Below are positions 1 through 50,514 of a DNA stretch of 64,000 bases, piece after piece. Numbering within the stretch: the first letter of the stretch is position 1; each line of letters opens with the position of its first letter. This DNA is from Euglena gracilis (Eukaryota). The stretch spans positions 44,867,847 to 44,931,846 of the forward strand of contig CP154954.1 of assembly GCA_039621445.1 (NCBI GenBank). The letters run 5' to 3'. Position numbers and translations under genes: made by a program. The notes beneath the pieces were generated by a model. It was given only the letters and a program-made list of their open reading frames with translations. It did not search any database and was not told the origin of the DNA.

Positions 1-335
1 GGGGAGAACAGGAGGTCTTGCCACCAGCAACACCTCCCAGGGGTCCCTGACGGAAAAAACGTTTTTTTTTTCCTCTGGCTGTGCGCCGAGGTTGAATGAG
101 GATTTTAATATGTTTTTGGCCCGAAAAATTCCCCAAAACAGACATTTTTGGCATAATTTGGTGGTTAAAAATCCTTGTGCCAGTGACTGGGAAAAACTCT
201 GCCAGCCCTGCTAGCAGGCCCGGAGGGTCCACCAGTATTTCCACAAATTTGGCCAAATTTGGACTACCTGCGGTCCATCCCCTTCCCGGGGGGGGGGGGG
301 GGAGGTACTGCGAACCCTTAAGCAGAAGCCTGGCC

Positions 336-373
336 ACGGGGGACGGCGTGTTCCAGAATGCCATGACACAGTC
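336..373 (-). CDS. Gene A exon DCVMAFWNTPSPV (second metal-binding Asp)
   Basis: Homologous to gene B exon 44222-44320; completes the IGD motif. Confidence 0.85.
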
Positions 374-3300
374 CCCGGCAGGGAGGCGGGTTTTGCCCAG
401 GAAAGGAGCGACCCTCGGAGTGCAAGGCCACGACTTAAAGTATTGGATGCAACCGGGGGGGGGTTTCACAAAAAAAAAACAACCCCCCCAAAAAACGCAA
501 GGAGAGGACGGCCGGGGGGCGGTGGTAGCTGCGTTGCTGGGCGGGGTCCAGGCAGTGGGCAAGCACCTATAGTCAAGCCCAAAAATTTCCCCATTTTAGG
601 CCATTTTAGGCCATTTTAGGCCATTTTAGGCCATTTTAGGCCATTTAAGGCCATTTTAGGCCATTTTAAGGTATAGGTGGGGGTTCTGAAAATCATAATT
701 TTGCGTCATTTTTGTCCCGAAAAAAGTATCATAACGTGTGCAAACCTTCTCTTGTTCAGTAATAACAAATGTACATCCAAAAAAGCATGCAAAATTCAAA
801 ACAATGGGAAGCTCAGCAAGTCTATATTCATATTCATAGAGGAATTCTGAACAATAAGAATTTACGGTAGATAAAATTTTCAGAGAAAAAAAAAACGTTG
901 GACAAAAAATAAGTTTTTTTTAATTTGTGCTACCAAAAAGGCTCCCGTTTTTTTTTGTGAATTCTACACCATTTTGCGGAATTTCGCAATAAGAAGTCAT
1001 TTTTTCTGAAAGATAATGCTGCTGCCTAATGAAATTCAATTTGATTTTGGCATTGTTTCAGTCATGTATATCATTCATTTTATTATTATGATAAATATTA
1101 AAGAATAATTATTAAGATCCATAATACAAACAAAAAATTATTTCCAAAAAAATACAATGAATTTTTATTTGTATTACAGATCTTAATAATTATTCTTTAA
1201 ATACTTATCATAATAATAAAATGAATGATATACATGCCTAAAACAATGCCAAAGTCAAATTGAATTTCACCAGGCAAAAAGTGAAATATATAAACCTAAT
1301 CCTGTACCTATTGACGGATAACATATATCATATGCTATCATATTATATATCCCAATATTATTCCAATTTTATTGATAATATGATTGCAGTAATAATTATT
1401 GTACAATTACACATTATATCAATAAAACTTATTTTTACTTAGTACATATATTTATTAATTTCAACTTATTTCTCTTTTATTACTAAAATTGTATTGTATG
1501 AAAACATGTGTTATTTGTATTACTAAAACTGCATTAAATATAATGTTAATGTTATATTTTTAATTCTACAATTAAAAATTGATGACTATAAAATCTTTAT
1601 AAATATGGAAAATATATCAACAAAATTAATAATAATAAAATACCCACACGAAATATCCACATAAAATACATAGAATATCCATAATAATTTTATGTCTATT
1701 CATAAAAATTGAAACATTAAATTTACTTACAAAAGTTATATTTATATGATGCTAGAATTTTATATTTCAATTGAGATTTTTCCAACATCTTTCATCTTTG
1801 TTTTGACTTTTTCCCCATGCTTCCGTTTCATTATTTGCGAAACAAACATCGGTGCAAACCAACAAGATAGGAGTAAGAAAAAATAATATGTCCAAACCTT
1901 CAAAATTCAGCCACCAAAAAAAGGTTGGGGCTGTGAATTTGGGGACTGATACGAGTGTTATTAGGATAAAACCATGGGCCTTGTGGGGCTGTGCTCCTCC
2001 ACCAAATCCACTGTTTGCCGTCCGCATTAACAAAGGACATTGAAAGGCATTGCCTGAATGGCTTCAGTAGTTCACAAAAAAATTGTTGTGCAACAGAATT
2101 TTTCCCATTTTAGGCCATTTTAGGCCATTTTAGGCCATTTTAGGCCATTTTAGGCCATTTTAGGGACCCCCACCTATAGGGGGTCAAAAAGTCATTTTAG
2201 GCCATTTTAGGCCCTTTTAGGCCATTTTAGGCCATTTTAGGCCATTTTAGCTATAGGTGCTTGGCAGTGGGGGGGGGGGTCCAGAGCCGGAACTTGTATG
2301 GGTGGTTGCGGAGTTGTCCACCCCCACCCACCCACCCCCACCCTTAGATTTTAGGCAAAAATTTTCCTTCACAGGAAGGGGGGGGGTCGGATACCCTCAA
2401 ACCCCCATTTTGCATTGCTTTTGACCATTTCTCCTTCAGAAATCTGGGGTTTGGACGAATTTCTTTCAGGCGCACCTCAAAGAAATACATCCATCCCATC
2501 ATTCTTTTGTCATTTTCCAGAAAATACCGGAAATTTTCGGCTCAACACTTACCGAAATTTCCTGGCGCGGGGCGAGACCCTGACAAGACCCCCCCCCCCC
2601 GGGTCCACTGAGTTCAAAAGGATATTGCCCCCCCCCCCATAGCGGTGGCTCATGACTCAGCGTCATCAGCAAACTCTGTGCATCCTTTTCCAAATGGTGT
2701 GTTGCCCCAACACACTCACCCTGGCCGCCGATGTACTTGTCGATTACCCCGCGGCGCCGCACGATGATGGTGGACAGCTCCTCGAAGAACGCGCCGATGC
2801 TCTCCACCAGCTGGGCCGCGTCGGTGGACTCCGTCAGGGTGGTGAAGTTCTCGATGTCGAGAAAGAACACCGTGGCGCGGGTGGGGACCATCGACAGCGC
2901 GACGGGGGTGCCGTGCTTCAGGCACGGCTGCAGCACCTCCACCGGCAGGAACCGCGTCGGAGCGACAGGCGGCGACCGCCAGACAGGAGGGGGGCCGCAG
3001 GAGGAGGCTCGAGATTCCTGGAGCCATCTCATGGCAAACACGTGGAGGCTCGCGAGCCTCCTCGAGCTGTCCGATGACAAGCTCAAGGAGGCTGGCGAGC
3101 CGGCTCAGGGAGGCTCGCATTGAGGCAATTCCCTGCTTTAATGTATGCCCTTTCCCTCTGCCACGGTTCAAGCCCTTGTGGTTTGGATGTGTATTATGAC
3201 AAATACCCTTTTTTGTTTTTGCCCTTTCCCTCTGTAACTGTTCTGCGGGCTTTTGAAAGCCACAAAGAAAACAACATCCTTTCTCACTCTTTCTGCACCG

Positions 3301-6300
3301 AGTACCCATTTCTGTTTCTTCTTTTTCCCCGTAAGTACATTGCACTTTTCTGAATGTGCGGGGGTATTGCTTAAAGTTATTACCTGGGTGAATAAATTCT
3401 GTTTGTGGAAGCGGTTTCCTACTACAAAAAAAACAGCATTTCTTGATGTCTCCATCTCCCAAGCTTGGAGTTTTCTACAAACTTGCAATTGACGGTAATG
3501 TGCTCAGAACACTGTTATTTGGCAAATCGGTCTAGCCTGGCTACGGTGTCCAGCATGATGCGCATCTTAGCGAAGGACTCCATCATCAGGCCCAGCTCCG
3601 GCCAGGCTCCCTTTTTGGGAACTGGAAACCTTGGAAACTTCATTTCAGTGGACATCCCGCCTGGGAGCTGCCAGGCGTGGAAGGTAGGTAGGTGCAGGTG
3701 GGCGTGCACCCCCCTGCACGCCCTCAACTCCATTTTTAATTGTGTTTGACCAGCTCCCTGGAATCTCCAGCTGGGCCCTAGCAGACCCAGACCCAGAGGC
3801 TCAGTCCTGGATATGCATTCACTTAGCGACTCCTTCAGGGGGCACTTTTTCCCGCCCAAACCCATCCACCCACAGGTGGGGGGGGGTCCCCCCCACTTGG
3901 GTGGTCGAGGCGGGGGGAGGGGTGGTCGATGGCCCACCCACCACCCGTTGGGTGTCCAAGACTCCAGCCTTGTTCAACCCCACCCACCCACACACCCGAA
4001 ACCCACCCCAAAAATGGTTGAAACCCCACAGAAAACTTTGGCCTTTGGCCACACTGACCCGCACCCCACCCCCTGGGGGGGTGAAGTGCCCAACCCACTG
4101 ACCCCCCCCCTTCGGGGCAGTGGTGGTGTTAAAATGAATCCTGGACCTCCCTGGAAAGGGGTTCCGAATCAATCAAAAAGAAATCTGGCCCCCGCACACA
4201 AGTGCCCCGGGGAACGGCGGTGCCCACCACGTCCAGCTCCACGCAGCGGTGCATGTCCCAGCCAAAGGGGGTGGCGGTTGTCAGGTGCCCCAGAAGAACA
4301 ACCGTGTAATACAGTGAAGGAGAAGGCACGGCACCACAAAACACATCCACCGTCACCCCAACTCTGATAAAAAGAAGAAAACAAAACGCCATACTGGAAA
4401 TGTCGAAATGAAACGTACCAAGTGTGGGAAAAGCATGCCAATAATCTCGAGCTGCCAAATGAACCTCTGAATGAAGCTGTTTGGCTTGCGGGAAGGACCC
4501 CTCCAAGCTTCTGGAGGGTCTACGCCTGGACCATACCAATATGCCAAGCAGGGGTTTTTTAAGACCGGGGGGGAGGGGGGGGTCCCCCCCACCACCCACC
4601 CCCTGGGGGGCCTCCCGGGGGGGGGGGTCCCGGGGGACCCACAAAAAATGGCCGAAAAATCGCGAAAAGTGCTAAAAATAGCATTTTTCGGCGCCTGCGG
4701 CGCCGAAAAGTATATCCCACCCCCCTCCGGGGGGACCCCCCCGGGGGGGGGGAGGGGGCTCGGCCGGACCCACCCACCCTACCCCCCCCCGGGGGTCCAC
4801 GACTAAAAAATCCCCTGATGCCAAGAAACAGCCCTTTGCTGAAGAATAATTTCAGCAAAAAGCGGCATGGAAAAAACAGAATGGGTGGTTGGAAATGCAC
4901 ATTTTATCTCACCATTGAAATTTGCCGTGTCGAACATATTCCCATTTGCTTGAGTTTGAAATCCAAAAAAAATATTTTCAGGAAATGTAAATAACGATGA
5001 ATCTCCATGGTTCAGATTTAGTACTTTTTTGAAGTATCCTTTTGTACGACTCATTTCAGTATGGTGCGGGGGGGGGGGTCTGTCGAATTAAGATTTTGGA
5101 ACCAACTTAGGAGCAACCAATACAACAACTTTGAAGTTTCAAGGCTCAAACTGGAAATAAACTTCAGACCAGGATCCATTTTGTGACCGTTATTGAAATT
5201 GTGTGGGGATTTTTGGGGGTCTCCACCAAACTGTGGAAACACTTGGGAGGGATTTTGTTCCTCAAATTCTGTCACACCAACTTTATACCATGCTGATCCC
5301 CCCAGCAGCATGGTATGGTTTGCAGGCTGTTTTTTACCAACCCCGGGGGGGAGGGGGGGTCCGGAGTGCCTGTGAGTGCCTGCCCAGTGGCTACCCCCCC
5401 CCGGGGGGGGGGGGTCGGATTTCGGCCTGTGCCCGGGCACATTCCTTTGAAAATAGGCCATTTTTGGCTCCCCGGCGCCTTCGGCGCCGGGGTTGTGCTA
5501 GGGCACTTTTGGCCGTGTGCCCCCCCGGGGGGGGGGGGGTCGGATTTGGAGTGCCTTGGGGTGCCTGCCCAGGCAGGCACCCCCCCCCCCGGGGTGGGGT
5601 CGGCACCCGACTAAAATACAGCCTGATGGTTTGCCGACACACTGCAGACTGAGCCTGCCAAAGCCTTTGGCCGCCCCCTTGCCAGGCAACCTTCCTCAGC
5701 GGGGAGGCGATCATCTTGTTGGTGAAGAGCACCGCGACGAGGGCCACGGCGGCCAGGCTGGTGACGCTGATGATGACCAGCAGGGCCACTGACCACCGGA
5801 TCGGCCGGTCGACGGGCCCGGTGGCCGTCTTGAGGCATTGGGGTTAGGGGGGGGGGTCGGGACTGCGGTGGGAAATAGGACCCGCCCACCCATGTTGGTT
5901 GCTCACCTGGGTGGTGTCAGGATCAGCTTGATGCCTCCTCCTTTTCCTCACTTCAAGCATTATGAAAAAGGTTGCAGTAGAGTGTGCATTGATCTCCTGT
6001 GTCTGAAACACACCAGTTGCCATTGCATTGCTGGGGTGGATTTGGGCCAGTGACACAGCCCCTTACACCCCCAAAAATGCCAGGTCTCCAACATATTACT
6101 GTTGACATGGAGGTGCGCTAGCCCACCTTCGCAAAAAAAAATGCACAAAAACACGTTACACAAGTGCAAAATCTGAGAGAAAAGGCGCAAAAAAAAATGA
6201 AAAATCATCATGAAAATGAAAAAATTACACCCAAAAACGTGCGAAAAAATCCAAATTTGAAAAACAATATGCAAATGTGAGGAGAATGCCATTTACAATA

Positions 6301-8567
6301 ACAAAACCAGTTTAAATATAAATTATAAAAAAAGGAGAGCAATACCAAAAATGCGCTGGAAAAAAATGAAAAGCACAAAAATGGGCAGAAATGCGGAGAA
6401 ATTTTCATTTGCACACACCCCACATCAGCACTTGTATAAATCAGTGGGGGAGGTGCCAGCGATTTATCCCATCGCCATTCGCACCAGTTCAGTTCGTGTG
6501 GTCCATCATGGGGGCTCCGTTAGGCACAGCCCTCGACCACACAGGTGGGGAGGGCCACTTTCTTGGAGAGAGAAAGAGGCGGCCCCCGGTCTGCACTGTA
6601 CGGCGTGGCGAGCACGAGGCGGTACGGCGTGGCGTCCCCCCGGGATGGGGGCGGGGCTTGGTTACATCGCCCCGGGGCTGCAGAAAAGAAATGCGAGTGA
6701 ACCAACAGGAACTGTCGAGAACGCAGCTGGAAAAAAAACTGGAGGGGGCGGCATGGCACCATGTCCAGGCCAAAACAAAACCAGTTGCCATCTGGCAGAT
6801 GTTAAAAATTAAAATGCGACAACAAATGAAGACATTGCAACAAAAACTTTGAAAAGGCAAAGAGGATGGAATTGTGTTGTGCATCCCCTCGTACGTTGTG
6901 CAACTCCTGTTGCCAACTCCTGTTGCCGATGCCCTCGCACGCAACTGTTCGGGGGCCCTAATATAACAAAATCCCTGTGCCTGTTTGTGTGCAACTCCTG
7001 TGTGTGTGCAACTCTCTTTTGTTGCCGATACCCTTTCATACGAAACTTTTCGGACGGCCCAAAAATAACAAAACCTCTTGTGATACATATGCCCTGTGTG
7101 TCATCACCCTTTTGTTGCCAATGCTCTGTTGTATGCAACTGTTCGGATGCCCTAAAATTACAAAACTGTTGCATATGCCCTGTGTAGAAAGGAATTTTAT
7201 CGTATTTTTTTTTGATAAATTATTATTCAGTTTTATGATAATAATTATTTTGGATACATCTCTAATAAAATCGAGAAGTAACTTCCTTGCTAATTAAATT
7301 AAAATGCATCAGATATGTTTCTCGTGTGAGACAATTCTCTGGGATCTTATGCAAAACTTAAAATATATTTTAAAAATGGTAAAAAAGAAAACATTTCAAA
7401 TATATGTACACATTACTTTATTATTTCTTTAAAAATTGATATACCAGCCTTTACAAAAAAAAAACATAAAAAAATCCGGGAAATTTAAAAAAAACATGCA
7501 AAGAATGTGCAAAAAGTATGAGCAAAATTGAAAAATTTCCGAAAGAAATCATCTCCAGCTCGCAGCCAACAGCAGAAAAAAAATTTGCGAGCTTCGAGAA
7601 AGTGCTCAATTTTGTCAAAAGATTGCCATGCCAAAAGAGCAAAGCTGGCAGTACAGGCCAGGAACCAACAGACACTTCACCGAGCCTGTCGTGAAACAGC
7701 ACCTACAGCTGTGAGATCAATCCCCGGGAGTGACGACCCGCTGCCAGCTGATGAGGTGGCAGCCGCCCCGGTCGGAGTCCAGGCTGCCCGACGTCGCGGC
7801 CGGGGAGGGGGGCGGCAGCGCGCGGAACGTGTCCGCCACCACGGCGCAGTCGGAGCTAGCCGCGTCCAGCAGCTCGTCGCCTCGGTGGGTGGCACCAGAG
7901 GCGGCTCCATAGGTGGACGGGGTTCAGAGCAAAGTTTTTTCAGGATCTGGGGGGTCTGGCACACACCTGCCAACACAGCACAAGGCTGGGGGGGGTCCCA
8001 TCCTCAGTCTAACGCAAAATCTGGCGGGGGCGGACCCACCCACCCAGCCAGTCACCTACCCCCCCCCCAGTCACCAACCTGGAAAAAAAAATGTCTCTGG
8101 TTCACCATACGTGGGGTCTGGAAATCGGAGGGGGGAGGGAGTTTGTTGACAACGGAGATGGTTTAAACTTCCACAAACATTGACAATGCTTGAACTCCAC
8201 CGGAATGGCATGATTTGACTACACCAATTGAAATAATGGATGCCCAAGGCTGGGGCACGGGTTGTTAAATCCCCCCCATGAGTGTCAGGTGTGGCCCGGT
8301 GGAGGGCCCCTGCCCGGAGCCACACGTGGCGGCGATCAGCGTGCCGCGGTCGTCCACGAGGTACGCCGTGGAGGCCCCCGCCGCCCCGCCGCTGAACCGC
8401 TGCACCGCGGAGTGGAGCAGCGCCGCCCAGTCAGCCCCCCAGGGCCTCGCCCCGCAACCAAACTCTGTCGACCCAGACCCTCTCCCCAGTGCTGCCGAGC
8501 GAAAGATCATCGAGGGCACAGCATTTCTGTGTGTGTTCCACGCCCGCAATTGAATGCGTGCGTGCGC

Positions 8568-8612
<45 letters not shown>

Positions 8613-8627
8613 TGTGTGTGTGTGTGT

Positions 8628-8708
<81 letters not shown>

Positions 8709-11700
8709 CGCGCTGCTAAATGTCCGAACCCAGACACAAATTCCCTCTCCCTTAGTGGACCGTTTGGGGCGACGACAAAACTGCGCTTGGAATGCACTCT
8801 GGGAACTCTTCTGATCCATCAGTCCGAAGTGTCATGGGTCAGAAGAGCATTCACAAGCTGTGTTGTTAATGGCCTCCAGAGCCCGGGGCCAGGCACGTCT
8901 TCCCTTTGAAGGCTGAGAAATGGAACCGGGCCATCAAACCCCCCCCCCTCTCCGGCCCTCTCTCCGCGCAGCCTGCTGGAGGTGTGCTCAGCGGGGCCCT
9001 GCCCGGCGTCCTGCACCCACACGAAGTGGAGCACGCGGGTGCCGTTCACCCGCGTCATGCGGTACTGCCCCACCTCCGTGAACGTCGGCCGCCATGGCCC
9101 CTCCGCATCTCCAGAAGTCGGATGGGGGCGTAAACGCCCCCCCCCCCCCCATACAACCCCCCCCCTCGGGCCGACCAACCAAACTGGGACTTGGAACCCC
9201 CCCCCCCCCCCGGGGAAGAAAATCAAAAGCCGCCGGGACGATTTCTTCGGCCGCAAACCACCCAATAACTGATTTTTTGGCAATTTTTTTTTGAGACCGA
9301 CCGTCATCAAAAATGCCATTTTTGACCAAATTCGCCGAAGAATGCCAATTTGGGTTGTTTCAGGGTCTTTTCGGGGGGTTGCATTTTCACGAATAATTCC
9401 TTGAAGGGGGGTCGCTGAGCTCTTACCTCTTTAGAGTAAGAGCGAAGCTTACCCCCCGGCGACCGTGGGTCCGACCCCCCCCCCCCCTGCCCCCCCCCCC
9501 CCTGGGTAGGTCCGGACACCCGAGGATTATCGATGTGATTGGATTTCCTGGCCCCCAAAGTGAGGAACCACAAATTTTTTCTTGGTGTCCACATGTGAAC
9601 CACAAAAAAAATTTTGGTGTCCACAGGTGAACCACAAAATTTTTTTGGTGTCCACAAAATTTTGTTGCCCACAAAACTTGATTGAGGATCGAAATAAAAA
9701 TGAGTTTTACAACTAAAAGCTATTACGTCTTTTGTGAACCACACTAAATGAATGTCTGGCGCATACCGATCGATACCCGCCCCCCCCCCCTGGGCAATTG
9801 TCGCGTGACAAATTGGGTAGCACGGAGGGGGGTGACAATTTCCCGGGGTGACAATTTGGCCGGCACAGAGGGGGGTGACAATTGCCCGGGGGCGTCAATT
9901 GCCCACCCATGTAAGCCACATTTGAACCAAATGATCAAGAACACCATCTGAAACACAAACGAACATATGGTCGTGATATTGTGCAGAGCGTTTGGTATGC
10001 GAAAGTTCTCAGCGCGTTGTAACGAAATAAAAGATCAATCGAGTCATGCGGCGAAAAGAAAGTTCACAATGCAATACTACAAACGGGGGGGGTGACAAAT
10101 TGGGCAGCACGGAAGGGGGTGACAATTTCCTGGGGTGACAAATTGGCCGGCACAGCCAGGGGTGACATTTGCCCGGGGGCGTCAATTGCCCGGGGGCGTC
10201 AATTGCCCGGGGGCGTCAATTGCCCGGGGGGGCGCGGGTAGGGCGTCCCAAAGTTGTGGAATGGGGTCCTCTTTGCTTTTCCTCAACTCCGTAGCGTTTT
10301 CGAGATATTTTGAATTTTCGATTCCTTGACCCCAAAATGACCCTGCAATTTCTCCGGGAACAAAACGTAGACCACGTTTTTGCTCGGGGCGGCATATCTC
10401 CGGACTGGCGGGGAGTTGCAGGTAACCTAAGGGCTCTGGAGAAACTAGAGATCGTCCCCTAACCTATACGGATTGAGCTTGAGACACCAAAATGCAGCCA
10501 CATTGTGGGGGGTGGGGAGACCCTCCTCCCACCTCCAGTTTTTGGTTGCCGAAACTTCTCGCTGTTGAGTTCAGAATTTCTCATTGAGCCTCAAGAGGGT
10601 CCTAAAATACACACCCGGCGCGAAGAGCAGGTGCGGATGCGGGTGCGGGGGTGTTTTTTTTTCCCCTGCAGAGGAGGAGCGGTCCACTTTGGTAACAGAC
10701 GCCCAAAAGACGTCATTTTCTGCCGAAATCGGCCACGTCGACGCTCCAAAAGTGAGAGCTCTGCCTCGCCTTGAGGTCGGCGATCCTTTGCCTGATTGTT
10801 GCGAAGGGGGACGGGCGGAGAGGCGTAATTTTGCCCGCAGCGGGAGTGCGTAAAACGCAGCAGTTACCGCCTGGGAGGCGCAAAATACCATGTGGGGGAC
10901 TGGTTTTTTGAATAGTGTTGAGCTCTTAATTGGACTTGCACGTAATGGACGGCCGAAAAGACTAGTTGCAAATTTCGCATAAATTATGGTTTACAAATTG
11001 CACACCTGCAATTTAGAGTTACTTACAATAATTTTTGAAAGGTTAAGAGGTCAGCGACCACCCCCATACACCCAATACCCGTTTTTCTTCGATTTTCCGA
11101 CTTCTTTGACCCGGAAATGATCCCCAAATCCATGGGTTCCAGGCCAAAAACGGGGGGCCGGGGTCGAAAAAAATCGAAGGAATTTTTTTCCTTGCCCGAA
11201 ACGATGTTTTTTTGGCTCCCAGACCCAGAAAAACTGCATTTGAGCCGAAAATGAGCGTTTGCCAACTTTTTTAAAACCAAAAAGGGCTGAAAACGGCTGA
11301 GTCAAAACACCCCAAAATGTACAAAATGGCCAAAATCAGTCGAAAAAACAGTCCTAACTCGGGCTTGGCGGGGAGTTGCGGGGAAATCAAAATATCCTTA
11401 GATAAGGCATTTTAAGGGCTTCAATTTAGGTCTCCAGACATTTCCTTTGACTCCCAACCATTTTTGAGAAATTTTGATTTGGAAAAATCGATTTTTTTGA
11501 GCAAAAAAGGATGGCCCAAAAAAACACCCAAAGTGGCCGTTTTGGGCCACAAAGGTGCGTTGGAAGACGGGCCAGGCGCTTCGGCGGCCAAAACGGCGAA
11601 CGGGGGTCGATAGAGGGCCTCCAGGGGTGCATTTTGTCAGTGAGACACTTCTGGAGATAATGTGCGTTTCCTCGAGATATTTTCGAAAAATCGATTTTTT

Positions 11701-14700
11701 GACCGATTTTTTGACCCTGGCAAAAGGGCAGAGTCGGGGGCCAATCCTTTCCAGTTTGGACCCCTTCGTGGCTGAATAACTCGGGCCTGGCGGGGAGTTG
11801 GGGGTCAAACAAACGGACGTGATTTGGAAACTAGAAATCCAGTCGCTGGTGGATGAAAAAAAAATTCTGGGAACGGAGCCGGGATCATGGCGATAATCCG
11901 TGGTTTTCTGCATTGCTTCATTGTTGTTGAGGAGAAAGGTAATGATGCAAATGTCAGCAGGCGGTGGGAAAACTTTTTGGTGTCCACGTGTGAACCACAA
12001 ATATTTTTTTGGTGTCCGCAGGTGAACCAAAATTTTTTTTCTGGTGTCCACAGGTGAACCACAAAAATTTTTTTGGTGTCCATACGTGAACCACAAAAAA
12101 AAATTTGGTGTCCACAGTGAACCACAAAATGACAACCTTGGTGTACCACACTAAATGAATGTCTGGTATGCGTGGTTTGGGCCAACTCCTCGCCCAGGCC
12201 GAGATACGGCCGTTTTGCTGTTTTGGGCCAGTTTTGCCAGTTTTGGCCATTTCGGGCCTGTTCGGGGCCCGAAACCGTAAATTGACCGTATCTCGGGCTA
12301 GACGAGGAGTTGGGACCCAAACCAGGGGGTCAATCATGAGGTTTAGGGGGGGGGGTTGACCGTTTTTTGAGTTTTTTTTCCCGGGGCCTGGTTGTGCAAT
12401 TTTGAGCCAGTTTTCGGCATTCGGGGACCCCCTGCGGGGGTCCGAGGGCGGCTGGGCGAGGGGAGTCGGGAGGCATGTCGGGACCCAAATTTTGAATTTT
12501 TTTTTGCTCAAAAACACTTTTTTTTCACTTTGGAACATCAAAAAAAGCGTTTTTGAGCGAAGTATATTTTTTTTCTGATGCGGACCCCCCCATGCCCCCC
12601 CTTGGCTGGGGTCCGCCCCCCTGGCCGGTGTACTTAGCCTTTTTTGGGTCAAAAAAGTCGAAAAATTTCGAAAATTATTTTTGCCCAAAACTATATGTTT
12701 TTGACCCCCCGGACTCGAAAAAAGTGTTTTTGGGCCGAAAATGAGCGTTTTTTTTTACCCCTGTCCCCGACCTGGACTTGGCAGCCGGCCGAGCCGCCGG
12801 CCGGGCCGGGCCGGGGTGGTCTCCCAAAGAGCTCAGCTCTACGTCACACCCTGGTTGCTATAAACCCCCCCCTTTGACCGACCAACCAAACCGGATCCTG
12901 TAAACCCTAGGGGGTTATAAGTGGGGGGTTTAGGGCTGCGCATGAACCGCCTCCCAACCCTCCGCCCTCCCAGGGAGGGCGGCGCCATGCCCAGGGTCGT
13001 GCCATCAGGTTGGGTCTCCGGCCACAGCCACGGCGCCACCCACGCCGCCTGCGTGTCCGCCATGTTGAAATACGCCTCCGAGCGGTCCGGGTATGGGGTC
13101 CACGACTCGAACGTGGCTGCCAGCAGGGCGGGGTGGGCCCCACAATGGGACAGGCAGCCACACGAGAGTCCTGCCCGCCCTGGCCCCGAGGTTCCAGTCG
13201 GCATCCACGCGGTCGCGGTACATCACGCTGCTGTTGGTGAAGTGCTCCCAGAACAGGTCCCGGCGGCCCGGGAGGTCCATGCGGCTGGCACAGAAGCTCC
13301 ATTGGTTGCCGCCAGGGGGGCCCGTGGCCAACCTCAGGACCAGGGTGAGGAGGCCCCAAGAGGGGGAACCCCCGAATATAAAAAAAATTCCCGAGAAGTG
13401 AATTCGGAACCGAACTCAAATAATAAACCTCCCCATCTGCACAGTGGTGAAAGTAAGGGACACAAGCGGGGGGGGGGGGGGAAGAACAATACAAACGTCG
13501 GGCAAAGCAGAACCATTGGTGGATTGGTTGGAAAAAACATCAAATAAGCATTCATTGTTCAAAAAAGCCCAAACACGTAAAAAGAAAATGGGCTTGGGGG
13601 CTGGGTGAGGTCCTTTTTTGGGCAATGTTTGCGTTAAACAATTCACCCCCCCCCCCCGGCTCCGACGTCAGGCATCCAAATAATAAACCTGGATTGCAAA
13701 ACTTGAGGGGTCAGGATGTGTTGATGGCAGCAATTTAATCCAACAGGATTCCATGCCACTTTGCTGAATCCCCCACCTTTGAGCGCCACAGTCTTGCTCA
13801 CCCAAAGGGCGACTTTGCACAAAAGTGTATCGAACCAAAATTCATCTTCGACGATTCGTCCCTGTTGATAAATGGAAAAAATGGAGTTACAGCTGGAGAA
13901 ATACTCATTTGCATTCATTTAGGCGAGGGGTGGGTAGCCTTGGAACCACCTTTGAACAACACATGATGTAAATCTGTCAAGGCTGAGAGTGCAGTGACTC
14001 TGCCACGGCTGAAAATGACCAAAAATGGCCTGAAACTCTCTCCGTCTGCGTTGACATAGATTCCCTGCATAAAATCACTGACCCTGACTGCTCCCTGATC
14101 CCCTTCATGCGGGGTCCTGAATGAGCAGGATCGGAGTTTGCAAAACAAAATTTGTATGATGCAGGAGATTCTGAACCCTCCTGCCCTGTCATACCAGTGG
14201 CCAGGGGCAGGGGAGGGTATTAATATGAAGCTGCCCCCAAAAAAATTGTCTAGAACCTTTTCCCCTCTGGTTTGGATTACTCCATCCGTTCATTCAAGCG
14301 GAGGGGCAGTCCCCAAGGAAGGGAGCACCAGCTGTCCCAAGGGCCCCCTGGGCGCCCGGGGCATACTCCTCCGGGTACGTGGTGCAGATGCCGCCGGCCC
14401 GCTTCGCCACCCCCTCCATCCAGGGCAGCATGACCCACTTTGGGGCTGGCCCGGCCCTCCCTCGGCAGCCCAGCCATCCCATGTCCCCGTTCGCCGGCGC
14501 AACGCAGTAAACCGGGACCGGCCCCGCCCCGGCACTTCCTCGAGCATTCGCGCCACCGTTCGCAGGAAGTCGAACGGAGAAGGCACCGGAGCCGACGGTT
14601 GGAATGGAAACAGATCCAGACGCACGGAACGAGCGGGAGGCCCGGCCCGGCCAGGCGCGGCTCGAGCAGGCGCCCCACCAGCGGGCCCTTCTCATGTCGC

Positions 14701-16877: not shown

Positions 16878-18794
16878 CTGCAACGGGAAGTGGGGCGGAG
16901 GGGCAGGGGGGTTGACAGAAGACCCAGATGGCCCAATCCTGACACTGCCGAAAGCCGGAAAAAATATTTTCTAATTTAATAATAATGAATAATAATAGTT
17001 GGGATTTGTCAGCCCCCATGTCCTCAAACTTGAAGAAAAAAAAAACAAAAGATGCAAGCATGCAAAGCCCCACAATAATACAGGACATGGTTGGAGGAGT
17101 CAAATCCTGCCAGGACTCATCAGCTGGGTGATCGCCGCTCCTGGGCTCGCAGTCAGGCCGTGCCTGCTTTACCTGTACTGGCATGACGGTTGTTTGCATT
17201 TCCTTGGGGAGAAGGGCAGTGGTTGATCAGCAGCCCCCTGCCTTTGGTCTTGCTTCCTCCAAGGGGTCACTCCATGCGGAGGCTGCTGGAGCACACTTCA
17301 GGTTATGTTCGGTCAAAAAATTCAGTGTTAAGAAAGGGGACAAAAGTTAAAACCCGTATTTCCCAAAAACTTAGCCATATTTAGCCATATACATTAAAAA
17401 GTAGCTATATTTTGGCTTTTGTGCCGAAAATTTCTGGCTTAAGGCCCCCTGGCACAGGACTCCCCGTGCCAGGGAGGCGTCCAAAATAAAAAGAAACTTA
17501 GTGGCAGTACTGTGGGTACTGCATGCGTTGACCTCCTGTTTTCCCCCTTGTCGAATTCAATGGCCGCAATACCAGAAATCGCCAACTTTACTTACTTTGA
17601 ATATAATTGGCTGGAAAGATTTAACAGCCCGCAGTGCCAGCGAGCTTGGGATCCTGTGAGATGCAGGGGAGGGGGGAGGACAGCCGAAGAACTTCCAAAA
17701 GTGGCAATGTGGAAATAAACCAAAAAAAGAGATTAATTCCGAAAAAATTCTGTTTTCCTGGAGATCGTGCAATTTTATTGAAACCCAAAATCATATGCTC
17801 TGGAATGGCTGCTTCAAAAAATTTCTTCTGACGTTGCTGGGGTGACAGAGTCAGATCTTCGCAGAATGCTCCAGCCCACAACCTGAGCCCGCCCCGAGTG
17901 CTTAGCGGCTTCAAACAGCTGCTAAACCGCTTCTAATAAGGCCAGCCGCAAGTTTACAGGGGAACCCCGGAACACAAACGGCGAAGACGAAAGGGGGCAG
18001 GGGGGGAGGAACGAGCAGGTCCCACAGGGGAAGCCCCTGCAACGGATGGCAGCGAAGATAAGGGAGGGGAGGGTGGGGGGCCGGGGTCCCCGACAGCGGA
18101 CGGGGTTTGGAAGACGGCCGAAAGGGGGGAAGGGAGGTCCGCCAGCGGGGACTGAGAAAGGGGGGAACGGAGGGACGCAGGGAAGACGGGCGGGATCGGG
18201 GGGGGGGGGGGACACCAGGAGAGTGCCCGGGGGCCCTCTCTGGGGCAGGGGCACCGGGGGGCTTGGGCAAAAGTTGACACTTTTCGACCGTTGGTCGGCA
18301 CAAACCATCCGACACCGGGACAATTTCACGCCATTGTAATCATGCCTGAAACAATATTCATTTTTTCCTTCAACTTGAGAAATGTGCCTTTTCCAACAAA
18401 ACATGTTAAAATCCTCAAAAAAAATTGCCTAGACAGGTGAAGAGAAAAGTACCAACAAGGAGCAAGCACAGAGGGTGGAGAAGGACATCGGGCGGGGGGG
18501 GGGGGAGGTGTCCCATATTCCTTTTAGAAGCTTTCATAAAATCGCCATAAACAGATGAGATCCAAGAAAAAAACAAAATAATGTCAGAAATGTGCCTGAT
18601 CCAACCCTGTAAGGCCAGACAGCCGCGGGATGTCACATAGAACATGGAAAAGAAAGTGGGTGGTCGGACTGTTGGCAGTTTTGTCAAGGGTAATCCCTGG
18701 ACTATCAACACGATTCAAAACCAATTCATCCTCCCCGCTGATAAATTCAAAAATCAAAATCAACCTGCACTGCACACACACGGAAACACAGATA

Positions 18795-18796
18795 CA

Positions 18797-18850
<54 letters not shown>

Positions 18851-19100
18851 GATGGGATGTATGTATGCATACACACATGTGAAAATATGTGCACATATGT
18901 AAATACATACATGCATGATGCACATAATTACGCACACCTGCAACCGACCCTCCGACCTACTGACCTACAGACATGTCTCCATACATACATGCATGCATAC
19001 ATACATACATACATACATACATACATACATACATACATACATACATACATACATACATGCATGCATACATGCATGCATACATACATACATACATACATAC
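18795..19100. repeat. (CA)n(GA)n and (ACAT)n microsatellites; duplicate at ~31926-32228
   Basis: Direct reading. Confidence 0.95.
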
Positions 19101-19644
19101 CTCCCCCCCCCCCTTGTCCAACGACCACTAATGTTCGTCTCTGACCGGGGGGGCTGTCGCTAAAATGGCCAATGTTCGTCTCCGACCAGGGGGGGGTGGT
19201 CGTTAGACAAGCGGGGTGGACCACAAGTCGGAGGAAAATTTGCCATAGATGGGGGTATATGGCCATTTTTGGGCTGTTTTTGGCCATTTATGCTATTTCT
19301 TGACTACGGTTGGCCACTTTTGGCCATTTTGGAAATTTTTTGAGCGCTTTTGGGAATTTTTAGGCATTTTTGACCACTTTTTGCCATGTTTGGTCGCTTT
19401 TGGCCACTTTTGGCAACTGTTGGCCACACTTTGGCCCCCTTTGACCGTTTTTGGCCACTTTAGGCTGTTTTTGGTTACTTTTGGCCATTTTTGCCTTATT
19501 TTTGCTATTTTTGGCAACTTTTTGGGCACCTTTGGCCATCCCTTAGCCATTTTAAGCCATTTTGGATTTTTTTGACTGTTTTTAGCCAACTTTTACCAAT
19601 TTTGGCCGAACCAACAACATCGTATACAAAAAGATCATCTCTGA

Positions 19645-21817: not shown

Positions 21818-21884
<67 letters not shown>

Positions 21885-31929: not shown

Positions 31930-31979
<50 letters not shown>

Positions 31980-32771: not shown

Positions 32772-32821
32772 CCGGGGGGGTGGTCGTTAGACAAGCCCGG
32801 TCGTTGGACAAGGGGGGGGAA
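32229..32821. mobile_element. MITE inserted in an (ACAT)n tract; truncated copy at ~19099-19644; relatives at ~35590-35650, ~48917-49535 and ~56355-56420
   Basis: TIR (C)nTTGTCCAACGACC/GGTCGTTGGACAA(G)n; internal degenerate TTTTGGCCA repeats. Confidence 0.75.
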
Positions 32822-43300: not shown

Positions 43301-46300
43301 TTTCAATTGTGAGGTTCAGAACACCGCAACACCCACGTCGATGCAGGGGAGCACAAATCAACACGCTTGATGTTCTTTGCACAGGTGGGACGCACCCAAT
43401 TCTGTAACCAGTGGTGCACCTGTGAGAAAAATTGGTAAACTGGGGGGAAAAAAACAACAAAACACAATAGCACACCTGTTGATCCATTTGAAGAATGGCT
43501 TGAACTCATTGCATCTTCCATCTTCGGTGGTGGGAAAAAAATTCTGCGGAAAAAAAATGGGAAAAAATTGCGGAAAAATTGCGGAAATTGCGGAAAAATT
43601 GCGGAAAATTGCGGAAAATTGCGGAAATTGCGGAAAATTGCGGAAATTGCGGAAAAATTGCGGATATCAATTTCCCCCCCCCCTGACTTGGGGTACCAGG
43701 CTTGGGCTGGAACTGGGCCCAACCAAGGATCAGGAACCAAAAAAATCGACCATGTAAACTCCAAAAAACTTCCAATTGTGCAAAAAGGCGATCTTTCCGA
43801 CCCATTTTTGCCCATTTTCGGCCCATTTCTTTGACACCTGAAAGCAAAAATTCATCACCGTCCAGCCTCCCGAAGGGTGGCTGGAAACAAATGATAAAAC
43901 CCATTTATGGGGGGCGTCTGGGCTGGAAAGATGCTGGTTGGCTCCTCCCTGGGGATGGGGTCGAATTTTCTTCCACTCGCCAATCTTTCATCCCTGGCTG
44001 CCGTTCTGTGCCCCCCCAAGCGGAAATCACACAAGATGAATATCCTGTTGCCCAGATTGATTCCACTTCCCGCCTGGCCAGAGAACGCCCATCCAAAATC
44101 AGTCATCACGACCGGAAGGCAGGTCTTCAGCCCATCCCCCATCCCCGGGGCCCCGCGATAAAAAAAGCCACCCAGCCTGCGGGGCCGCAGGGCGCCATGC
44201 CTGCAGGGAGCCGCCCTGCCGGTGGACCATCCAGTCTGCGCACTCCAGCGCCGCCCGGCACGCATGGTACTCGTGGTCCTTGACGGGGGACGGGGCGTTC
44301 CAGAAGGCCATGACGCAGTCCCCGGCAGGCGATGGGCCGGGGCTTTGTCGTCCAGAAATGCGGGTCTTGAAAAGCAGGGGATGCCGGTGTTCACGGTTTT
44401 CAAAAACGACAAAGAAAAGGATGTGGCCGGGAAATAAATGAAAAGGACACAACCAGCACCCTTCACAGCCCTCCACCCATTACCCCACAACGATGTCATC
44501 TCGTTTCTGTGCATTACATCCTTTGATCCTGAATCTCTTTGGTAAAAGAAACCCTTGCTGAAATCAACAGCAAATAACTGCGGACAAAGAGCAATCCCTC
44601 GTCCAGGAAACCATGAGTATCAAAAAGAAGCAGGGCGACGCCCACCACACACGAGTGTGGTGGGTAGTGTCAGAGTGAGATGCTTCTCCAGCGGGTCTGA
44701 AACAGCACTCCAAACTCATTCATATGGTCTGGGGCCAAGGCCCACCCTGGCCGCCGATGTACTTGTCGATTACCCCGCGGCGCCGCACGATGATGGAGGA
44801 CAGCTCCTCGAAGAACGCGCCGATGCTCTCCACCAGCTGGGCCCAGGGATCGGCAACAAACACTCCCCACCCCCCACGCCACCAAAAAAAAGCAGAAAAA
44901 CAACTTCGAACCGCCACCGAACTACCCTGCATTCAGCCTCAGAACAAAGTGCTCTAATTCTGCTAAGGCCTGGAGCACTGGTGGGCGTGGATTTACCTCG
45001 CCAGGTCGGGGAAAACCGCTGCAGACCATTTTCCTTCAGCAATTCAAAGCCCAGCAGGGGGGGGGATGTGGTATTTGCAAAAGGAGGGCATTGCAGGAAA
45101 TAATCTATCCTGAGACAATTTTGGTGCACAGGGCGAAGCCTTAGACGGCCGGGAATGCACTTTTCTTGTTGAGTCACAAAAGTATGACAGTTTTAGTGAA
45201 AATGCGCATCCGCGCATTTTGGACCCGGAGTGCGCAGGTGCGCATTTTGCATAGTTTGATGCCTCTTCCAGACTGGGGGGTAAACACCACAAAAATGAGC
45301 TGTTTGGATACACGACTATAAGGACCATCCCCTTGTTTACTGGTTCAACTACGCAGCATGCTGTTTACAGCTGTTTCCCGACGACTGTGGTACAGTGCGT
45401 GGCTGGACTCACACTCGGCACACTCCACACGACATGCGGAACACGGACGACGCACACCAACCTGGACCTGGGTGTGCCACCCTTGTGTTCACCGGTGCGT
45501 GCTGATGGCTCCTGGGGGCAGGGCCTGGTGAACCCGGGATGAGCATGGGAAGGAACACCTTGCAGGCATGGAGACACAGCCCTCCCACGGTCAAAACAAT
45601 GGGGGTGTCACTGAGTATCAGGGCCGAAGAATGCGCACCTGCGCATTTTTTGGAAACCCAAAAGAATGCGCAGGTGCGCATTTTTTGGAATGGACACAGC
45701 CTGTGGGAAGGGGGGAATGCGCACACGCGCATTGACGTTGAAGGACACACTGGGTATGGCCTGTTGTTTGCCTGCCTTGAATGCGAGCTGTGCACCGCTA
45801 TGATGTGGTTTCGGGCTTGCAGAACATGGGTGTGTGAGGGGGAGATGAAATAAAATAATCGGTCTTGGAAAAATTGTCGCTGTACCAGGCCACACCCTGA
45901 AACATGACACCTGCAGCAGCATGGAAAATCCTGGGCTTGGCGATGGCAGGTGTCAAGGCACGAATTCATGTCCTTCAGTGATAGGGGAACTGCCCCCTGC
46001 AGTGCAAGTCATTGAGCAAATCAGAATGCGCACCTGCGCGCTGCAGTCCAGTGCCCAGCCCAGCCTGCGCTGCTCTCATGAACGTGTGGAGCAAGTCACA
46101 ACGCAATGCAACTGTCCCCCACCCGGCGGAGGTGGTGGGCCGGTTGGTGCCAGCGTTGTCCGACCCCACGCCCCAGAGCGTGCATGGCAGCACACAGCCA
46201 ATGGTCGCACTGAACAACCTTACGTTGGGCTGTACGAGGTGCAAGAAGCACTGTGCCCGACAATTAGGGTCAACGCAGGGGGTTGTGTCTGGTTCCACCC

Positions 46301-49300
46301 ACAGTGCTCACGGGGTTGGCACCTCGAGAGCGAAGCACGCCTGTCACCACCTTCGGCATCATTCCCCCAAAACGGTCTGTAAACACAGAATTAATTTACA
46401 ATCCAAATGGACTCAAAGAAGCGAACACCACTGGTCAGTCCTTACCCCAAAATTTCTCCAGGCCCTTGAGATTGTGAGACAAGCAAGCCCATCACAACAA
46501 AAACTTGCCGATAAATCCAGTATTTTTTTCCGTTCTGCTTTTTCGTGTATTCCACTGTGTCATACCAAGGGCATACGGATGAGAAAGGGACTTCAATGCC
46601 CGAGGAAATTCCTCAGTGACGGGCACCCTAACTCCCAAATGCGGTCAGCAGCCCTTCATGGCATGAGTGAAAAGCCGGTGAATGCGCACATACGCAAAAA
46701 ATCGTCCTGTGCCTTTCTTTGAATGACAGCCACACCGTCGAATATTTTCACTCCAGATGGGTATGCCACCACCCACGCCAACTCCCCCCGCCTGGCCTGG
46801 TTTTGAAACCACACAGCTGAAGTGAAGACCTCCCTGCGAGGATCGAATGGTGACCGAGGACGAGGCAGCCCTGGAGCGAAACACGGCAGATGAGGACCAC
46901 CACCTGTGGCCTTGCTGGCAACAAACGTCACCCACCACACAGAACCCTTTTTTATCATGAACTTAGAGTCGACACACCAACAAACTACACAACCCTTGGC
47001 CGCTGTGAAGACCAGGGAAAGCACATATGCACACACCTTCTCCACACACCACATCCGCAATGGCTGCAGTCAAACATGGCACATTGGGGTGAATGCGCAC
47101 ATGCGCATTCCCTTCTTGTGTCTCCCCTTAAAGCACCCTGGTGGGAGGTTGCTGTACAGGGCCATGCCAAACAACTCAGCACACAAGGTAGAGGCACAGC
47201 CCAGGAGACGTACACCCTACTCTGGCGGCATCCTCTTGTGCAATGAGATGCCTCTGAAATTGCTAACAAAAAGGGCAGCAGTGCACCATGGGGGTAGCCC
47301 TGCCACAATGCTGTGCTGGCACTGGGTTCAGGAGTGCGAGACACAGCTCCCCACAACACAGAGAACGCGCACCTGCGCACTCCCCCTCACAAAATGCGCA
47401 GGTGCGCACTCTTGTGGATGCCCAGCGCTGTTCCCTGCAGGTAGAATCACAGCCGGCCAGCGAAGGAATGGCCTCGAGTGCGCACGTGCGCATTCTTGTG
47501 CCTCATGCAACCTCGAAGAGGAGCCATTTTATGTTGTTTGTGAGGGCTGTTCTGGAGGGTGTGGTCTGTGGCAGAAAGGCTTGAGGCAGGGCTCCGCTCC
47601 GTGGCTTTCAAAACCAGTGACACACAGGAAAGGGGTGCAAGCCAGCCCCCCCCCTTCCATACCCAGCACCCCATCCCAAACCTCACACCCAAACACAGGT
47701 GGTCCCACATGGTGATGTGCCGTGGTGCCTATGAGAAGGCACATGGGGAGCGGACGGCGTGCGCCACTGGAGGGATGCTGTGCCTGTATGTGTCACAGAG
47801 GGGTGCAATGCACCTTGTGGAATGGCAAACAGCGGGCAGCCTGAGGAGGGTGACGAGCCCTCCCCAACACACATCTGGAGTGGATTTAAACACACACACC
47901 CCGCCACTCTCTGAATGCAGAGTACACGTACACAACAAACATTCACCATCGCCCCCTCGTGCCCTGCTTCCAGCACAGGGCACAGAACCTCCCATCCACT
48001 CTAACCGCAGAGACCACAGTGCCCCCTACCCACAACCACCCCTGGGAGCCACAATAACCGTCCAACACTTCAGGAAAAGGCCGGGACGGGGAGGGGGGTG
48101 AATGCGCACCTGCGCATTCACTGGGGTCCACAAAACAGGGGGGCAGCCACAGGTACAACGCCTTCACCTGACGGGCGTCCTCGTGAAACAGCGTTTTGTG
48201 TCGCACCACTTTGGCAGACGGGGGTTTTCCCTCGGTCCGCGGAGGTGCTAAACCGTCATTTTCAAAACGATAAAAGTCGGTTTGCCCAGGAAAAAAACCC
48301 AGGGATCGAAGGTAGTGGTACCCATTTTGGTACCAGGGGTTTCAGCTGACGGGTCGGCCGCCCCGTCAAGTGATGACGACACACTTGGTCTCAAAAGAAT
48401 GCGCAGGTGCGCAAAAAAACACCAAAAATGAAAAGTGCATTCCCGGCCGTCTAAGGAAGCGCCAAGCTGAAAGACCTGCCTCCCAAAATCCTTCCTGGAG
48501 ACAGTCCCCTCCTGGAGTCAGTCTGACCCTCCTGGTAGGTGGAGGTTTGGTCCGGACCCCCCTCCAATCTAGGAGGGGGGGGGGGTGTCAACCCCATCCT
48601 GGACACCCTATCAGTTCTTTGCAATGAGTTTTCAACAGCCCCAACAGCTTTGTGGATCAAATCCTGGGGACAATGGAGTGCTCAATCCCACGGGTAATGG
48701 GGTTGGGGAACTCTTCTTCTTTTGGTGAAAGTTTGTTCTGCCCTCAATGGCATGCGAAGACCTGACTGGGCCGCATCGGTGGACTCGGTTAGGTTGGTAA
48801 AGTTCTCAATGTCAAGGAAGAACACTGTGGCAGCCGTTGGGGCAGAGGGGGACCAGCAAAATCTCTTCAGGAGAATATCTTCTCCTATTTGCGACACAAA
48901 TTGGAAAGAAGACATTACCTCCCCCCTATGTCCAACGACCGGTAACCTCTGTCCTCTGACCGGGGGGAGGGGTCATTGGACATAGGGTAGTGACCAAAAA
49001 GGTGTCCTCTGACCAGGGGGGTGGTCGTTGGACACAGGGTCGGGGAAAAAAAAGTTTGCCGAACCCCCCCAAACAGGTCATAATTTTCCTTCCGGCGCTT
49101 CGCGCCCCCATTTCCAGCCCTGTCAACAATATTTCCTCAAAGCACCCAGAACGTATCACGCTGTGGGATTTCACAAAACAAAGATACCTAGTCGACAATC
49201 CCTGCATTCCATCAACCATCTTCACTGCATCATACAACCTAGCAAACACCCGAAAATGTCATGGCGGAACGTTGGGAGTGTTGTGAAGCTCCTTCGACAA

Positions 49301-50514
49301 CCGCAAGCACTATCCCCCAGGTGGAGCGCTCGTAATGCACAAAACTCACCAGAGGGAACATTTTAATGGACGATGGGCTGCGGGGTAGAGGACAAGGGGG
49401 GAAGAAAAGCCTTTCAGGGCTGGAAAACCTCCGGTTTCACACATCTGCAAAAAAACAACAACATCAAACCTCCGAAAAGGTGTCCTCTGACCGGGGGGGT
49501 GGTCGTTGGACATAGGGGGGTCGTTGGACATATCTGATGGGTATGATCGTGGAGTACAGGGTGACGTATTTCATTGTTGCTGGTCACAAAAACAAGAAAA
49601 AGTCGTTTGATTGGGAGCAAGATGGTCAACGCCTGGGTTCTTGTGGTTGCAGGGGGTCACTACGGTCCAGCCCTGGGGGGCACCATCGAGAAGCCCACCG
49701 GCGTGCCGCTCTTCAGGCAGGGTTGCAGGACCTCCACCGGCAGGAACCGCGTCGGGGTAGCAGGTGGCTGCCGTGGCCCAAGGGGGGTTCCTTTGGTCCT
49801 CGGGGGGAACAGACAACTCGTGAGATGTGATTTCGGAAGGTTGGATTTTTACGTTCCACCCCCCCCCCCGCGGAGAACACGTCCACCGGTGCAAGGCAAG
49901 AAGACAAACTTCGCAAGGCAGACTTTCCAACATGAAATAGTTGTCGACCGCAGCCATCTTTGAAGCTTTTCCCCCAAAAAAATGCGTAATGCACCGAAAC
50001 TTTTTTCCAGTCCATTGCAGCTGTACCAGGCTACACCAACTTTCAGCGACCCTCCCCTCGGGGGTCTGCAGCCTTGCTGGGAGCTGCTGGTTGGGAAAAA
50101 GTGCTCCAGCTGGAGTCCCCCCTAGTCCTTTCCACCAGAAGTGATGCCCTGGTGGGTATCATATGACGCTCCACTAGAAATTCCATAATTTCTGACAGAT
50201 TGTGCCAAGCTTCAATGTCGGCAAGAACTGATGAAACTAATCAACAAACTGAATTTATTCTTTGTTTTGGTTCCCAAGGTTCGATTTCCTAATGTAATAT
50301 TCTATAGTCACAAAACTACACGGTTTATTTTTGGGAGGGTTTCGAGAATGCGACAAGCTGGGCCGGAAACAAGCAATGGCCGCCTGGCCACGGTGTCCAG
50401 CATGACGCGCATCTTGGCGAAGGACTCCATCATCAGGCTGAGCTCCCGCACACAGGTTCCCCGGGGCACGGCAGAGCCCACCACGTCCAGCTCCACACAG
50501 CGGTGCATGTCCCG
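40393..50514 (-). CDS. Gene B: paralogous HAMP plus class III adenylate cyclase, 9 exons (50390-50514, 49679-49753, 48768-48838, 44753-44838, 44222-44320, 42729-42865, 42431-42535, 41225-41251, 40393-40579)
   Basis: Joined protein has FFLDIENFT, DKYIGDCVMAFWNAP, RMGLEAG, NYTVVGDVVNVASRLEGLNK, ILIG and LKGK...VYEL, then an acidic tail and TGA. K, T, N, R and both Asp catalytic residues are present. Some junctions are uncertain by a few nt. Confidence 0.88.
40580..41224 (-). other. Nonconventional (GT-starting, intermediate-type) intron of gene B
   Basis: GTT-CAGGCGAC...GTTGCCTG-CCGCC; restores KGKAMGMSVYEL. Confidence 0.8.
42536..42728 (-). other. Nonconventional intron of gene B
   Basis: GGC-CAGGC...GCCTG-CGGCC; restores VNVASRLE. 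Confidence 0.8.
43162..43685. mobile_element. CAG...CTG MITE with 9-bp TSD and (GCGGAAAATT)-like subterminal arrays
   Basis: TIR CAG(G)nAAATTGATATC; ACTTGGGGT on both flanks. Confidence 0.88.
44321..44752 (-). other. Nonconventional intron of gene B at IG|DC
   Basis: GGC-CAGGGTGGGCC...GGCCCATCGCCTG-CCGGG stem. Confidence 0.85.
44839..48767 (-). other. Nonconventional intron specific to gene B, with a 7/8 TSD
   Basis: GGCCC|AGT-CAGG...CCTG-GGCCC|AGC; absent in gene A. Confidence 0.88.
45139..48456. mobile_element. 3.3-kb TIR element with 3-bp TSD, superfamily unassigned
   Basis: 27-bp perfect TIR CCTTAGACGGCCGGGAATGCACTTTTC; TSD AAG; dispersed GAATGCGCACCTGCGCATT motifs in both orientations. 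Confidence 0.88.

Follow-up and report, generated by a model that had tools for sequence, protein, structure and literature searches.

In a stretch of 64,000 nucleotides (nt) from Euglena gracilis (GenBank assembly GCA_039621445.1, contig CP154954.1, positions 44,867,847 to 44,931,846 of the forward strand; hereafter the window), two paralogous genes transcribed from the minus strand, referred to as gene A and gene B, differ by an insert that interrupts an exon of gene A. RNA evidence revealed that this insert is removed from gene A transcripts precisely as an intron. We consider it likely that a transposon inserted there and became a precisely excised nonconventional intron, and that the two base changes which later lengthened the stem at its ends arose by drift. 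The kind of intron is already known, and the RNA-verified example is new.

Read on the minus strand, the insertion in gene A (plus-strand positions 3595-4195) has the layout GCGGG|GGC-CAG...CTG-GCCGG|AGC, in which the bars mark the cuts. Two octamers, GCTCCGGC at 3595-3602 and GCCCCCGC at 4188-4195 on the plus strand, enclose the element with the CAG and CTG termini. Paralog B carries GCTCCCGC on the plus strand, without an insert, which corresponds to GCGGGAGC on its transcribed strand, and the flanks on either side of the insertion align between both genes. The two octamers of gene A agree with each other at six of eight bases and each with the gene B octamer at seven of eight. The 5' copy departs from the empty site at position 6 (A to G) and the 3' copy at position 3 (G to C). 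The identity of the changed bases can be established irrespective of any gain or loss history, because each intronic half can be checked against the other copy's exonic half.

The RNA data comprised two contig sets (X1 and X2), taken as RNA only by guess, and two raw RNA runs (X21, on record as RNA, and X24), all from the same species and mapped to positions 1-18700 of the window. A joint linking 3597 to 4191, which skips 593 nt and may slide by 2 nt, was found in one contig of X1 (depth 130), in one contig of X2 (depth 67) and in nine raw reads of X21 with nine distinct starts, and in no read of X24, whose depth there is almost nil. The spliced mRNA of gene A thus reads GCGGGAGC, identical to gene B. 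The preliminary description of this DNA, made from sequence alone, had proposed the gene A layout and the uninterrupted site in gene B, with one change per duplication copy, both intronic, and had predicted the intron itself. The layout and the gene B site were confirmed base for base (3595-4195 and 50442-50449), the two changes were found where it had placed them, and the intron proved to be real, with the RNA joint restoring the empty-site octamer.

According to the same joint, the cut follows base 3, base 4 or base 5 in the 8-base-pair (bp) duplication. Only three positions are left because the two copies no longer agree at positions 3 and 6, whereas a perfect duplication would leave nine. 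The register 5|3 is the sole one that places CAG at +4 to +6 and CTG at -8 to -6 and starts the next exon with a purine, here the A of AGCTGG, as the code demands. The intron ends are CC..CC on the plus strand and GG..GG on the RNA strand, not GT-AG, and GT/GC-AG borders were absent at all three slide positions. The nonconventional splicing code of Euglena, 5'-N3CDG...CH'GN5-6|R, was defined through knock-in mutagenesis: the 3-nt donor spacer tolerates no change of length, the 5-nt acceptor spacer tolerates one additional nucleotide, pairing inside CAG/CTG is essential for splicing, and substitutions beside these triplets leave splicing normal (PMC12501133). The ends GGC-CAG...CTG-GCCGG present CDG after a 3-nt spacer and CH'G before a 5-6-nt spacer, and the segment 3598-4190 is a euglenid-type nonconventional intron fitting this formula. 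The exact 5|3 register and recognition by pairing are features that we infer by borrowing from the knock-in work; the suggestion in the preliminary description that the duplication changes are consistent with a 5|3 cut agrees with both the RNA-limited cut and the published N3/N5 spacer rule. Intron type, CAG/CTG positions, spacers and slidable direct repeats all appear in published work (PMC3935182, PMC11170887, PMC12501133), the last of which gives flanking direct repeats for 84.4% of all introns and slidable borders for 69.1% of nonconventional ones.

No conventional intron occurred in positions 1-18700 among the 14 RNA-supported introns examined. These represent 13 of the 15 joints listed, beyond which there are 86 more, together with one intron derived from a loose end at 3543; the two listed joints set aside comprised one between opposite strands and one with 28 letters between its sides. 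Likewise, none of the 15 listed joints (again with 86 more beyond them) was a back-joint that would indicate a circular RNA of the 3598-4190 intron. Very high read depth was observed at 9475-9502 and 288-305, with opposite-strand joints linking a C-run and a G-run, a signal that most likely reflects low-complexity cross-mapping and not a transcript.

When the RNA-supported exons are joined, a single open frame is kept through PRGTCVRELGLMMESFAKMRIMLDTVTRFLPVEV and KYIGDCVMAFWN, which correspond to a class III cyclase catalytic region. The Pfam profile Guanylate_cyc, searched on the exon-bearing frame alone, gave an E-value of 0.0011, a match below the curated cut-off. Gene A is interpreted as a class III cyclase gene of the receptor type. 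Protein is encoded by the exonic halves of the duplication, the restored frame reading Val-Arg-Glu-Leu.

The termini of the insert, CAGATTTCTTTTTG and CAAAAAGGGAGCCTG, each match the family consensus CAGGCTTCTTTTTA with three mismatches, a level of agreement reached by only 14 of the 2368 CAG sites in the window, the ends of the family's own members included. An inverted-repeat search found the arms 3600-3615 and 4175-4190 to be 75% complementary. An additional arm-like site, CAGGATTCATTTTA (4130-4143, minus strand), lies 44 nt inside the 5' end of the intron and, with two mismatches, resembles the consensus more closely than the outer 5' arm does; it may represent a subterminal repeat or a remnant. 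Eight candidates emerged from a scan of the window for CAG...CTG elements that are flanked by 8-bp repeats differing at no more than one base and that match the arms at 10 or more of 14 positions; six of the eight are clean, with perfect 8-bp duplications and CAGG...CCTG inverted repeats. Two of these young elements, 4549-4817 and 5323-5625, are nested within the 1424-nt gene A intron 4258-5681. The interior of the gene A element, compared with the young elements, yielded only low-complexity matches in G/C-runs (best E-value 8e-4). The earlier proposal that the termini are decayed terminal inverted repeats of this family is therefore upheld by the arms and finds no convincing similarity in the interior. 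By the likeness of its arms alone, we regard the insert as a decayed CAG...CTG inverted-repeat element of the same kind as the young elements. A search for a transposase among the 121 open frames of at least 140 amino acids in the window gave no Pfam match, and no Rfam match was found across the whole window. Considering the 8-bp duplication length and the CAG terminus, the element is presumably hAT-like.

The extended pairing at the termini could also be read as a true inverted repeat, GGCCAG...CTGGCC, inserted with a duplication of only 2 bp (GG) and without any base change after insertion. Such a reading needs no point changes, and the flanks GTGTGCGGG and GGAGC are what a doubling of GG in an empty site GTGTGCGGGAGC would give. 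It is nevertheless very improbable: the flanking bases differ among the six young elements, all of which carry perfect 8-bp duplications and which therefore start exactly at CAG, and the 8-mers of gene A share six of eight bases with each other and seven of eight with the empty site. Moreover, we know of no common element class to which a 2-bp GG duplication would be appropriate.

The history that we favor can be outlined as follows. A non-autonomous inverted-repeat DNA element with CAG...CTG ends would have inserted into the cyclase exon, generating an 8-bp target duplication. Once transcribed, the arms would pair in the pre-mRNA and draw the intron ends together, and the nonconventional excision machinery would make its 5' cut 3 nt ahead of CAG and its 3' cut, which precedes a purine, 5 nt past CTG. 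The element would then leave together with exactly one duplication copy, returning the Val-Arg-Glu-Leu frame to its sequence before the insertion; the exon is restored exactly because 3 + 5 equals 8, the duplication length. After the insertion the exonic halves of the duplication would stay fixed, being protein-coding, and the intronic halves and arms would decay at a similar rate, with the changes at +1 and -3 happening to create one extra G-C pair.

Alternatively, the intron could predate the A/B duplication and have been lost precisely from gene B, for instance through conversion with a spliced copy, and the decay of the element lends this some weight, as the arms (6 of 28 positions) and the duplication (2 of 8) have changed at least as much as the flanking exons of A have diverged from those of B (11 of 122 nt). 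The insertion is consequently not clearly younger than the A/B duplication. Conversion between the paralogs is also indicated by the exon 2717-2817, which is 99% identical to 44743-44843 amid neighboring exons at 80-87%, and this pair looks like a recent gene-conversion tract when the sequences are compared. At the insertion site itself, however, the flanking exons are 87% identical, which argues against recent conversion there; gene B retains other introns at shared positions, and an insertion with target duplication is the simpler history. Loss in gene B thus appears unlikely, and gain in gene A by insertion remains the preferred explanation.

Pairing at the intron ends was evaluated as a predicted two-strand duplex, in which 15 of 16 positions pair, three of them as G.U. 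Minimum-energy folds of mini-hairpins built from the ancestral and derived ends were dominated by local hairpins, and the duplex calculation took their place. The target octamer has GC at both of its ends, so that +3:-5 (C-G) and +2:-4 (G-C) paired even before the two changes; +1:-3, now G-C, was then an A.G mismatch. The preliminary description was accordingly correct in that the helix has been extended to GGCCAG/CTGGCC. The calculated duplex energy is -18.5 kcal/mol for the ancestral and -22.1 kcal/mol for the derived ends, and -18.7 or -18.1 kcal/mol with a single change. Given that each single change shifts the duplex by less than 0.5 kcal/mol, neither step would be selectable alone, whether as deleterious or as beneficial. 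Enumerating all 252 double substitutions across the eight intronic duplication bases, we observed that 27 yield a 3-bp stem extension and 165 shorten the stem. Under uniform chance, the probability that both changes land in the intronic halves is p 0.23, and the true expectation is higher because the exonic halves are codons. Relative to consensus and empty site, the intronic duplication halves and the arms show the decay given above at about an equal rate. Among seven introns in positions 1-18700 that fit N3-CDG and a 3' CH'G (the spacer of the latter being 5 nt long in five introns and 7 nt in two), all of them spliced, contiguous spacer pairing reaches 3 bp in one, the gene A intron, 1 bp in another and is absent from the remaining five.

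The preliminary description had seen in these changes a hint of post-insertion selection on the stem, and selection on the RNA stem could indeed have favored substitutions in those halves of the duplication that are intronic, so that the helix at the termini grows as far as the cut sites. Both changes hit +1:-3, the sole pair able to extend the helix, and are complementary; the duplex gains 3.6 kcal/mol; the helix now ends exactly at the 5' cut, leaving a 2-nt 3' overhang; and pairing inside CAG/CTG is known to be essential (PMC12501133). Set against this are the choice of a single intron after inspection, the lack of any selectable gain until the second hit, the splicing of 6/7 neighboring code-conforming introns without paired spacers, and the normal splicing after knock-in substitutions adjoining CAG/CTG reported in the same source (PMC12501133). 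The change in the second polarized intron, described below, moreover weakens a pair. We therefore judge such selection improbable, and its proposal is not supported: it draws on one intron and two bases, with lengthened stems in 27/252 random double hits, paired spacers in 1/7 introns and coding exonic halves. Confinement of changes to the intronic halves is what drift predicts, because the exonic halves are codons, and the two stem-lengthening changes are most likely drift. Some results nonetheless weigh against the overall account. Firm RNA support for excision amounts to the nine reads from the single run X21, the RNA status of X1 and X2 being guessed; only 3 of the 252 double hits (about 1 in 80) have both changes forming the new pair, a possible hint of selection; and three of four arm transitions leave a G.U pair in place on the transcribed strand (not significant, the chance being 5 of 16), a pattern of the modeled duplex that is suggestive of RNA-level constraint.

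A further intron polarized by the paralogs resides in gene B, with its boundaries placed from sequence, and its empty site is found in gene A. Its duplication has undergone a single change, at +3 and thus intronic, which turns C-G into U.G and weakens the pair. All three polarized changes in the two introns are therefore intronic (p 0.12 by uniform chance), a placement that fits a 5|3 cut combined with coding constraint and not stem lengthening, as judged from these alignments. A third presence/absence intron, in gene B at about 48843-49674, was left out: borders of the N3/N5 type are not placeable in frame there, and N3/N4 would be needed.

Other introns of the region displayed variations on the same ends. 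One common to both paralogs (2959-3542 in gene A, about 49769-50382 in gene B) has an N3-CAG 5' end and a 7-nt spacer after CTG in both; this exceeds the published 5-6-nt range, yet the intron is spliced in gene A, as seen from the loose end at 3543. RNA-supported variants include 16194-16401 with CAA/TTG ends and N3/N5 spacers, 4258-5681 with CAA/TTG ends, a 4-nt slide and spacers that total 5, 9086-12991 with CAT/ATG ends and N3/N6, and 15207-16167 with CCG/CGG ends and N3/N5. The coordinates of the main features are collected in the table.

Table. Features of the gene A intron, its counterpart sites in paralog B and related elements in the window (bars mark cuts).
Feature	Position	Strand	Evidence
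5' copy of the 8-bp target-site duplication, GCGGG|GGC: 5 exonic and 3 intronic bases (N3 spacer); base 6 is G, not A	4188..4195	minus	sequence compared with empty site
Predicted element resembling a MITE (miniature inverted-repeat transposable element), 585 nt, CAG...CTG termini, interior rich in G-runs/C-runs	3603..4187	minus	sequence, inverted-repeat search
3' duplication copy, GCCGG|AGC: 5 intronic (N5 spacer) and 3 exonic bases; base 3 is C, not G	3595..3602	minus	sequence
Excised intron, 593 nt, placed in the 5|3 register; RNA permits a register slide of at most 2 nt	3598..4190	minus	RNA joint 3597 to 4191
5' terminal inverted-repeat arm CAGATTTCTTTTTG, 3 mismatches to family consensus	4174..4187	minus	consensus match
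Terminal inverted-repeat arm at the 3' end, CAGGCTCCCTTTTT on the plus strand, differing from the family consensus at 3 bases	3603..3616	plus	consensus match
Gene A upstream exon, ending in CVELDVVGTAVPRGTCVR	4191..4257	minus	RNA joints and spliced frame
Gene A downstream exon ELGLMMESFAKMRIMLDTV	3543..3597	minus	RNA joints and spliced frame
Empty site GCGGGAGC, paralog B	50442..50449	minus	sequence comparison
Predicted gene-B-specific intron AGT-CAG...CTG-GGCCC|A; duplication GGCCC|AGT / GGCCC|AGC	44839..48767	minus	boundaries from sequence
Gene A empty site GGCCCAGC for the gene-B-specific intron	2810..2817	minus	sequence comparison
Young elements with perfect 8-bp duplications	4549-4817, 5323-5625, 36717-37175, 55852-56194, 59219-59638, 60714-61018		element scan

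Beyond these features, the window harbors a 13.2-kb direct tandem duplication formed by 6464-19644 and 19645-32771, with 98.5% identity (201 differing columns in 13192). The first copy contains upstream exons that RNA joins to the cyclase exons of gene A (joint from 5804 to 7733), and for this reason the second copy carries a second set of them. Each copy is closed by a satellite-like array that expands past the second copy (18792-19100, 31921-32229 and 32821-33461) and shows many self-matches offset by 4 or 12 nt. The tandem copies also allowed intron ends to be compared, with one substitution and one indel in 320 nt of terminal windows against 76 differences in 7333 intron nt and 9 in 1336 exon nt, counts too few to inform on constraint.

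With the nonconventional introns of Euglena, as described in the literature (Nomura et al. 2025, PMC12501133; Milanowski et al. 2014, PMC3935182), the gene A intron shares non-GT-AG ends, CAG at +4 to +6 and CTG at -8 to -6, spacers of 3 and 5 nt, a purine-first exon, ends that pair (predicted here), short direct repeats that make the border slidable, and precise removal from RNA. It is unlike the typical members in that its repeat copies have diverged, leaving a slide of three positions, and in that a paralog provides the empty site; its spacers themselves pair, which the code does not require. In common with MITEs that generate 8-bp duplications, the element has terminal inverted repeats, no coding capacity, several elements with similar arms in the window and an empty site in a paralog, and differs from them in its excision from RNA in a fixed register and in sharing only G/C-run matches in its interior. 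Introners of Micromonas, dinoflagellates and other lineages offer a further parallel, as a DNA transposon becomes an intron and the removed sequence derives in part from the duplication, by which the frame is restored; they use spliceosomal GT/GC-AG sites that come with the element or are recruited from the duplication (PMC11282704), whereas the gene A intron has GG..GG borders, with no such sites, and ends that pair. That the nonconventional introns of Euglena descend from transposons has been hypothesized since 2013 (PMC3935182), and a MITE origin is offered as a hypothesis by PMC3935182, by PMC11282704 and, in its Discussion, by PMC12501133; this 2025 splicing-code paper still calls their origin unclear. 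Within the literature searched, no paper was found that links the 3-nt and 5-nt spacers to the 8-bp duplication made by a defined family of elements, or that points out that the two spacer lengths add up to the length of the duplication.

Selection on the stem would bear on the mechanism of excision, and support for it was not found at the gene A locus. As excised, the gene A intron is predicted to form the GGCCAG/CTGGCC helix plus a GG overhang. RNase III-type nucleases, which measure double-stranded RNA, leave ends of this shape, with 2 nt protruding at the 3' side; a link to Euglena excision is conjectural. One might imagine that spacers are shaped over time until the terminal helix reaches the cut sites, so that the excised intron becomes a perfect hairpin with a 2-nt 3' overhang, an idea to which we attach little credence. 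If true, the excision enzyme would measure from the helix, and the 3/5 stagger would be matched to the 8-bp duplication of the resident transposon, a match that would account for each new insertion starting out as an intron that restores the frame. The gene A locus constitutes a clean worked example, combining an inverted-repeat element, a diverged 8-bp duplication, a paralog with the empty site and RNA that restores this site, and it indicates that diverged duplications can narrow the cut register, which is otherwise hidden in most nonconventional introns by their slidable borders.

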